In this document: positions 856 to 875 of the stretch, piece after piece
Layout: every line of letters begins with the position of its first letter
Numbering within the stretch: position 1 is the first letter of the stretch
Assembly: GCF_003334335.1 (NCBI RefSeq)
Contig: NZ_QOWQ01000078.1
Origin: Escherichia coli
GTDB taxonomy: Bacteria > Pseudomonadota > Gammaproteobacteria > Enterobacterales > Enterobacteriaceae
Reading direction: 5' to 3' (one strand)
Length of the DNA stretch: 4,565 bases
The notes under the pieces: model-generated
Databases searched by the model: none
What the model saw: only the letters and a program-made list of their open reading frames with translations
Told to the model about the DNA's origin: nothing
Made by a program: the position numbers and the translations under genes

Positions 856-875
856 CGGGAGGGTTCTCCCTCCCG
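856..875. terminator. GC-rich hairpin between the convergent gspO and bfr 3' ends (8-bp stem CGGGAGGG / CCCTCCCG, loop TTCT); putative bidirectional terminator or 3' stabilising stem-loop
   Basis: Perfect 8-bp inverted repeat at 856-863 / 868-875, 2 nt after the gspO stop and 8 nt after the bfr stop. No strong U-tract on either strand, so intrinsic termination is uncertain. Confidence 0.45.

Follow-up and report, generated by a model that had tools for sequence, protein, structure and literature searches.

What does a perfect inverted repeat do when it lies between the stop codons of two convergent genes and is followed by no run of U residues on either strand? The question is raised by a 20-nt element between gspO, which encodes a prepilin peptidase, and bfr, which encodes bacterioferritin, in a 4,565-nt stretch of an Escherichia coli contig (NZ_QOWQ01000078.1) that we refer to as the window. 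A sequence-only reading had left two roles open for it, a stem-loop that protects an RNA 3′ end or a weak bidirectional terminator. We examined its fold, its frequency in shuffled sequence, its counterparts in relatives and the published maps of RNA 3′ ends that cover it.

Results

A G-C-rich stem-loop in a 28-nt convergent gap

The features of the locus are collected in Table 1. gspO and bfr converge on an intergenic gap of 28 nt (855-882). As the sequence-only reading had it, a perfect, G-C-rich 8-bp stem sits between the two stop codons (852-854 on the + strand, 883-885 on the - strand): residues 856-863 (CGGGAGGG) and 868-875 (CCCTCCCG) pair at 8 of 8 positions, 7 of them G-C, around a TTCT loop at 864-867. 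The stem starts 1 nt past the gspO stop codon and 6-7 nt past that of bfr, and in bfr-sense (-) RNA an optional ninth pair, U·G between 876 and 855, is possible. Relative to dinucleotide shuffles, the folding energies of the RNA hairpin correspond to z = -3.2 for the + strand (-16.1 kcal/mol) and z = -3.5 for the - strand (-15.6 kcal/mol). The total folding energy of the 70 nt downstream of E. coli bfr is unremarkable (z = -0.9); it is the 20-nt hairpin alone that stands out (z = -3.5).

Table 1. Features of the window (positions count from its first nucleotide; MG1655 positions where noted)
Feature	Position	Strand	Basis
gspO (prepilin peptidase) CDS	177-854	+	ORF; MG1655 annotation agrees; stop TAA 852-854
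C-rich, G-poor stretch antisense to gspO, putative rut/termination zone	585-735	-	Composition; Rho peak
Steady-state bfr / bfd-bfr mRNA 3′ ends, +4 to +6 nt past the 8-bp stem	850-852 (MG1655 3466216, 3466217, 3466218)	-	Term-seq, SEnd-seq
U-less stem-loop, bfr 3′ UTR	856-875	-	Sequence, fold, shuffles
bfr (bacterioferritin) CDS	883-1359	-	ORF; MG1655 annotation agrees; stop TGA 885-883
bfd CDS, co-transcribed with bfr	1431-1625	-	ORF, MG1655 annotation, SEnd-seq operon
Two tandem terminator-like hairpins after chiA	1728-1787	-	Terminator scan
chiA	1794-4178	-	ORF
tufA terminator, canonical	4419-4446	-	Terminator scan; Term-seq end 3470093 = window 4418
tufA, 3′ end in window		-	ORF; MG1655 annotation

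To gauge chance, the whole window was shuffled 1000 times at the dinucleotide level and searched for comparable stems, defined as 8 bp without a mismatch, 7 or more of them G-C, around a 3-8-nt loop. The expectation was 0.016 such stems per window, with one or more in 1.4% of shuffles, and because it is so low the hairpin inside the 28-nt gap is not attributable to chance.

A 35-nt query spanning the element was found with 100% identity in 3113 of the 3160 matching E. coli genomes, with a median of 1 site per genome and never more than 2. bfr is expected to be a core gene. All queries, even one taken entirely from the bfr coding region, had matches in 3160-3173 of 5426 E. coli genomes, and this ceiling of about 3160 looks like a limit of the search or the database and not like biology. 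We considered a REP or BIME repeat and ruled it out, given the single copy of the 35-nt query per E. coli genome and the outcome of an Rfam scan of the whole window (E <= 10), which returned no match at the hairpin. REP and BIME elements, which can stabilize mRNAs from the 3′ side, are likewise extragenic palindromes that block 3′ exonucleases, as the bfr hairpin would, and they often lie between convergent genes; the bfr hairpin differs in being single-copy, only 20 nt long and devoid of a REP consensus.

The flanks of the stem and the requirements of intrinsic termination

The lack of a U-run noted in the sequence-only reading was confirmed on both strands. The 8 nt past the stem are ACACGGCU on the + strand (1 U) and GUUAAUAA on the - strand (3 U), with tail scores of 0.03 and 1.07, respectively; the tufA terminator, also in the window, scores 4.09. 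A scan of the window for consensus terminators did not call the hairpin. In stem length, energy, G-C richness (8 bp, -15.6 to -16.1 kcal/mol) and location just past a stop codon, the element is similar to the canonical tufA terminator. It differs in having no U-rich tract of 7-9 nt directly 3′ of the stem, in an exonuclease-dependent RNA end at +4 to +6 in place of an exonuclease-free end at +7 to +9, and in Rho-sensitive transcription downstream. An upstream A-tract paired with a downstream U-tract, as in a bidirectional intrinsic-type terminator, is also missing, since the flanks read ...UAUUAAC and ACACGGC.... The site that a bfr U-tract would occupy is the complement of the last codons and stop codon of gspO (ATC TCT TAT TAA).

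Translation may bear on termination as well. In a reporter study (PMC4824070), intrinsic termination was almost lost when the terminator was placed a few base pairs past the stop codon. With a stem that starts 6-7 nt after the bfr stop codon and 1 nt after that of gspO, a terminating ribosome would overlap the 5′ arm, and the stem may therefore be near enough to the stop codon for such a ribosome to interfere with termination.

On the + strand, a small A-U-rich hairpin (AUCUGUGCUUGCAGAU) followed by AAUUUUG lies at window 899-914, antisense to the 3′ end of bfr. It is the first U-tailed structure that any gspO read-through would meet, and it may well be there by chance.

Mapped bfr RNA 3′ ends, one of them PNPase-dependent in one dataset

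Published E. coli K-12 MG1655 coordinates were transferred to the window, on the gspO side of chiA, by subtracting 3,465,366 from the U00096.3 position. The MG1655 annotation shows no indels from gspO to chiA, and the 61-mers of the Term-seq table match the window sequence; on the other side of chiA, the tufA-side offset holds for both the tufA stop codon and the published end of its terminator (3470093 = window 4418). The chiA ORF itself is 794 aa (2385 nt) here and 897 aa (2694 nt) in MG1655, a difference of 309 nt (103 aa) that probably reflects one N-terminal repeat unit fewer; the window is therefore not K-12 MG1655 itself.

In the Term-seq data of Adams et al. 2021 (PMC7815308, Supp. file 1), the dominant 3′ end is 3466218(-), or window 852, 4 nt past the stem, and is classed as 'primary' for bfr and 'antisense' to gspO. 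It was recovered in all three growth conditions, with 45,215, 2,955,315 and 196,213 reads in file order; the condition labels (LB OD 0.4, LB OD 2.0 and M63) are assumed from that order, which makes the largest count presumably that of LB OD 2.0. The bfr RNA thus mapped ends in ...CCCUCCCGGUUA. A separate ORF-internal 3′ end inside bfr, 3466466(-) or window 1100, appears once in the same tables, apparently in the M63 tab.

SEnd-seq of RNase mutants (PMC10667835) places a 3′ end one nucleotide further on, at 3466217(-) or window 851, in the sheet 'PNPase ends in WT'. The proportion of this end is 0.317 in the wild type and drops to 0 once pnp is deleted (log2FC 6.1, FDR 0.007), so that the end depends on PNPase in this one dataset, at a low log-phase coverage of log2 cpm 4.3. 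The same study delimits the bfd-bfr operon as 3466216-3467010, window 850-1644, and scores it with one '3′ pnp stop' and one '3′ rnb stop'. None of the SEnd-seq rows listed gave a matching, longer 3′ end downstream of the hairpin that was specific to the pnp deletion mutant.

At the other boundary of the operon, the SEnd-seq 5′ end at 3467010 (window 1644) lies 6 nt past the TATTTT -10 element of a predicted promoter (1678-1650, - strand) upstream of bfd. A further 5′ end at 3466748(-), window 1382, falls within the bfd-bfr spacer and suggests a second start for bfr alone.

Mapping the 3′ ends of both transcripts had been named in the sequence-only reading as the way to check the hairpin. For bfr the published maps answer clearly, with an end 4-6 nt past the stem. 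For gspO neither Term-seq nor SEnd-seq lists a + strand end at the hairpin, but read counts on the gspO strand are low, so this result is uninformative.

A Rho-sensitive region downstream of bfr

If polymerases pass the hairpin on the bfr strand they enter the antisense strand of gspO, and there the published data list a bicyclomycin-sensitive Rho termination region at 3466021(-), window 655 (PMC7815308, Supp. file 2). It lies 197 nt downstream of the bfr 3′ end on the same strand and has a score of 3.12 (p = 4e-8), a value derived from 800-nt windows at low read numbers in which bfr read-through and antisense transcripts starting inside gspO are not separable. The read counts listed for the region are 146, 46, 123 and 121 (PMC7815308). 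If these stand for upstream and downstream reads, untreated and then with bicyclomycin, the downstream/upstream ratio at 655 rises from 0.32 to 0.98. Base composition changes over the same interval: the C/G ratio of the - strand is about 1.25 at window 735 and increases to about 3 (up to 3.2) at 635-585. A second Rho termination region is located on the + strand inside gspO at window 555, upstream of the hairpin (PMC7815308). A literature search for bfr in connection with bicyclomycin found nothing specific.

The hairpin in relatives of E. coli

Hairpins downstream of bfr are widespread. Among 79 distinct Enterobacterales bfr loci, the 70 nt past the bfr stop codon fold better than shuffles, with a median z of -2.3 and z < -2 in 44. 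Most hairpins have a clear U-tract (tail scores of 2-4.5) where the fetched flank showed no convergent peptidase gene, as for example in Xenorhabdus, Photorhabdus, Providencia, Pantoea and Erwinia. These hairpins are not homologous to that of E. coli, and they resemble true intrinsic terminators. In many Enterobacteriaceae (L019, L025, L027 and similar loci) there is a 4-17-nt overlap between the bfr stop codon and the end of a convergent gene for a prepilin peptidase, and a long U-tailed hairpin, AAACCCGCUGC...GCAGCGGGUUUUUU, lies inside the peptidase ORF about 20-70 nt past the bfr stop codon, where it encodes ...KNPLPFGPFLAAAGF.... Judged by its sequence, it looks like a terminator embedded in convergent coding sequence.

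The peptidases themselves vary. E. coli GspO has 225 aa and PF01478 as its sole domain (window 177-851, + strand); the bfr-adjacent peptidases of relatives (P0024-P0040) have 254-260 aa and an additional N-terminal PF06750 domain. At two loci the 3′ region of gspO has received an insertion sequence: in L002 (strain FCI56) the hairpin is intact and the junction with IS1 follows it after 24 nt on the bfr strand, and in L093 gspO is cut short by an element of the IS66 family.

The E. coli hairpin has counterparts in a group of relatives, where, as in E. coli, a gap of 28-40 nt holds a stem-loop whose 5′ arm, read on the bfr strand, is rich in purines. The GGGAGGG/CCCUCCC core is kept in L088 (92% nucleotide identity to the window), L087 (66% identity in GspO) and L094 (58% identity in GspO), and the loops vary (AGAA, ACAU, AUAU, AACGG). 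In L017, L090, L005, L006 and L009 the arms differ and pairing is kept. An alignment of ten homologous hairpins with MAFFT and RNAalifold left several out of register, which understated the pairing, and was replaced by an alignment made by hand. In the latter, stem positions 3-9 are paired in 9 of 9 distinct sequences, and four stem positions show GC-to-AU or GC-to-CG double changes; anchored as it is on each sequence's own fold, this alignment is fitted to structure and leans towards it, and we take these counts as supportive and not as a formal test. Each of the nine wobble pairs is a G·U or U·G in bfr-sense RNA and would be an A·C mismatch in gspO-sense RNA. Because the wobble pairs fall on the bfr strand only, the comparison indicates selection for pairing in bfr-sense RNA, and not in DNA or gspO RNA.

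The tails in this homologous family are U-rich in L094 (UUGUUUAU) and L006 (UUUACUUA) and not in the others. Such variety within one family would fit easy switching between terminator types.

Discussion

We consider it likely, with a probability of about 0.7, that the stem-loop is a 3′-end-defining, stabilizing element of the bfr and bfd-bfr mRNAs that serves as a barrier to exonucleases and not as a canonical terminator. In such a scheme RNA polymerase transcribing bfr would mostly pass the hairpin, because no U-tract follows the stem, and would enter untranslated RNA antisense to gspO that could recruit Rho. Release by Rho would be diffuse, some 150-300 nt downstream, in the C-rich, G-poor stretch. 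PNPase and RNase II would digest the tail back until the 8-9-bp G-C stem halts them, which would leave the precise end ...CCCUCCCGGUUA(A), 4-6 nt past the stem. Thereafter the stem would protect the bfd-bfr mRNA and presumably prolong the life of the bfr message. That bfr read-through specifically is what Rho terminates downstream is something we infer from the position and strand of the bicyclomycin-sensitive region.

These properties are those of a class described by Dar & Sorek 2018 (PMC6061677), in which Rho-dependent transcripts end right after stable stem-loops that have no U-tract, the ends are trimmed to the stem by PNPase and RNase II, and C is enriched over G downstream. The bfr element has the same stable G-C stem-loop with neither a U-tract nor an upstream A-tract and the same precise steady-state end a few nucleotides past the stem (4 nt, in three conditions). 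Its end shows the same dependence on PNPase/RNase II (0.317 in the wild type against 0 in the pnp deletion mutant, at low read depth), and a C-rich, G-poor, bicyclomycin-sensitive region follows, the signal of which may come from bfr read-through or from independent antisense transcripts. Nothing substantive differs; a particular of the bfr tail is that it runs antisense to a convergent gene at a distance of just 1 nt. The hairpin is an ordinary member of a class that is both known and common, and published tables already list its 3′ end.

The reading that competes most directly with an exonuclease barrier is a weak, non-canonical intrinsic terminator of bfr, in which the imperfect U-tract GUUAAUAA would suffice for the direct release of a substantial share of polymerases, perhaps with help from NusA or NusG, exonucleases would trim 2-4 nt and Rho would mop up the leak. 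The stability of the stem, which equals that of true terminators, fits this well, as do the sharpness and abundance of the bfr 3′ end and the presence of a hairpin at the end of bfr in most Enterobacterales, with a clear U-tract in lineages that have no convergent peptidase gene. Mixed or transitional cases are discussed by Dar & Sorek (PMC6061677). An end at +4 to +6 could also arise from termination at +7 to +9 followed by the nibbling of a few nucleotides, and the U-tailed homologous hairpins of L094 and L006 leave room for partial intrinsic termination in E. coli; both points count against our preferred explanation, as do the low SEnd-seq coverage, the lack of a longer pnp-specific end among the rows listed and the coarse windows and few reads behind the Rho score. 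Against intrinsic release, the tail offers 3 U in 8 nt and no more, the ends are mapped to +4 to +6 and not to +7 to +9, deletion of pnp abolishes the end at 851, read-through downstream is sensitive to bicyclomycin, and the stop codon is probably close enough for a terminating ribosome to interfere. Intrinsic release of this kind agrees with much of the data and could operate alongside an exonuclease barrier; as an account of how the bfr end is mainly made, we think it unlikely. A purely DNA-level role for the palindrome, as a protein operator or a cruciform, or an origin by chance with no RNA function, is hardly credible. In principle a dimeric protein could recognize a short, perfect inverted repeat, but only 0.016 such stems are expected per window by chance, an RNA 3′ end maps to the base of the stem, the element is located at gene 3′ ends far from promoters, and relatives carry compensatory changes and one-strand G·U pairs that a DNA-level site would not tolerate.

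A bidirectional terminator serving both gspO and bfr has been the other role in view. The hairpin would pause polymerases arriving from both sides, and head-on and trailing collisions would release them, as proposed for gene pairs such as ynaJ-uspE. Collision-driven bidirectional terminators of convergent gene pairs were reportedly described by Ju et al. in 2019, and the K-12 gsp operon is said to have been found silenced by H-NS in the work of Francetic et al. in 2000. The bfr hairpin is situated right between two convergent stop codons, and its fold is as good on one strand as on the other. Hairpins that separate convergent genes and look like neither an intrinsic nor a Rho-dependent terminator are on record (10.1101/2022.10.23.513370), so that both share the feature of a convergent-gene hairpin unlike an intrinsic terminator. 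Under the collision model, termination should improve when traffic is heavy from both directions (10.1101/2022.10.23.513370), yet a strong bfr 3′ end forms despite low reads on the gspO strand. Ends at the bfr hairpin are documented on one strand only, with low reads on the partner strand in these datasets, and PNPase dependence together with the downstream Rho region points to a different route. The + strand has its own Rho region at window 555, inside gspO and before the hairpin; one of the 8 nt in its tail is U, the gspO stop codon is 1 nt from the start of the stem, and wobble pairs favor the bfr strand only. Of the two roles left open by the sequence-only reading, then, the protective stem-loop stands for bfr, on the strength of ends at +4 to +6, a pnp-dependent end at 851 and a Rho region about 200 nt downstream, and the weak bidirectional terminator, with its role for gspO, appears highly improbable.

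A more speculative history can be drawn for the exonuclease-barrier hairpin, and we regard it as a long shot. The hairpin might do more than halt exonucleases passively and be a strand-asymmetric element that lost its U-tract in the Escherichia lineage, with the end of gspO now filling that space, and bfr might have switched from intrinsic to Rho-dependent termination. Read-through from bfr might then silence gspO by antisense, and the bfr 3′ end might be sensitive to Rho activity or, through collisions at the stem, to gsp expression.

For annotation, the bfd-bfr operon gains a defined 3′ boundary at window 850-852, and the U-less stem explains why terminator predictors find nothing after bfr. 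The significance beyond annotation is small, and no new mechanism is implied. The locus does provide a clean textbook case of a U-less protective stem-loop squeezed into a 28-nt convergent gap, and it forms part of a comparative series that runs from U-tailed hairpins in some relatives, through others in which a U-tailed hairpin lies within the convergent ORF, to the E. coli hairpin, which is tail-less. On the evidence of that series, the neighboring coding sequence may constrain the type of terminator that a gene can have.
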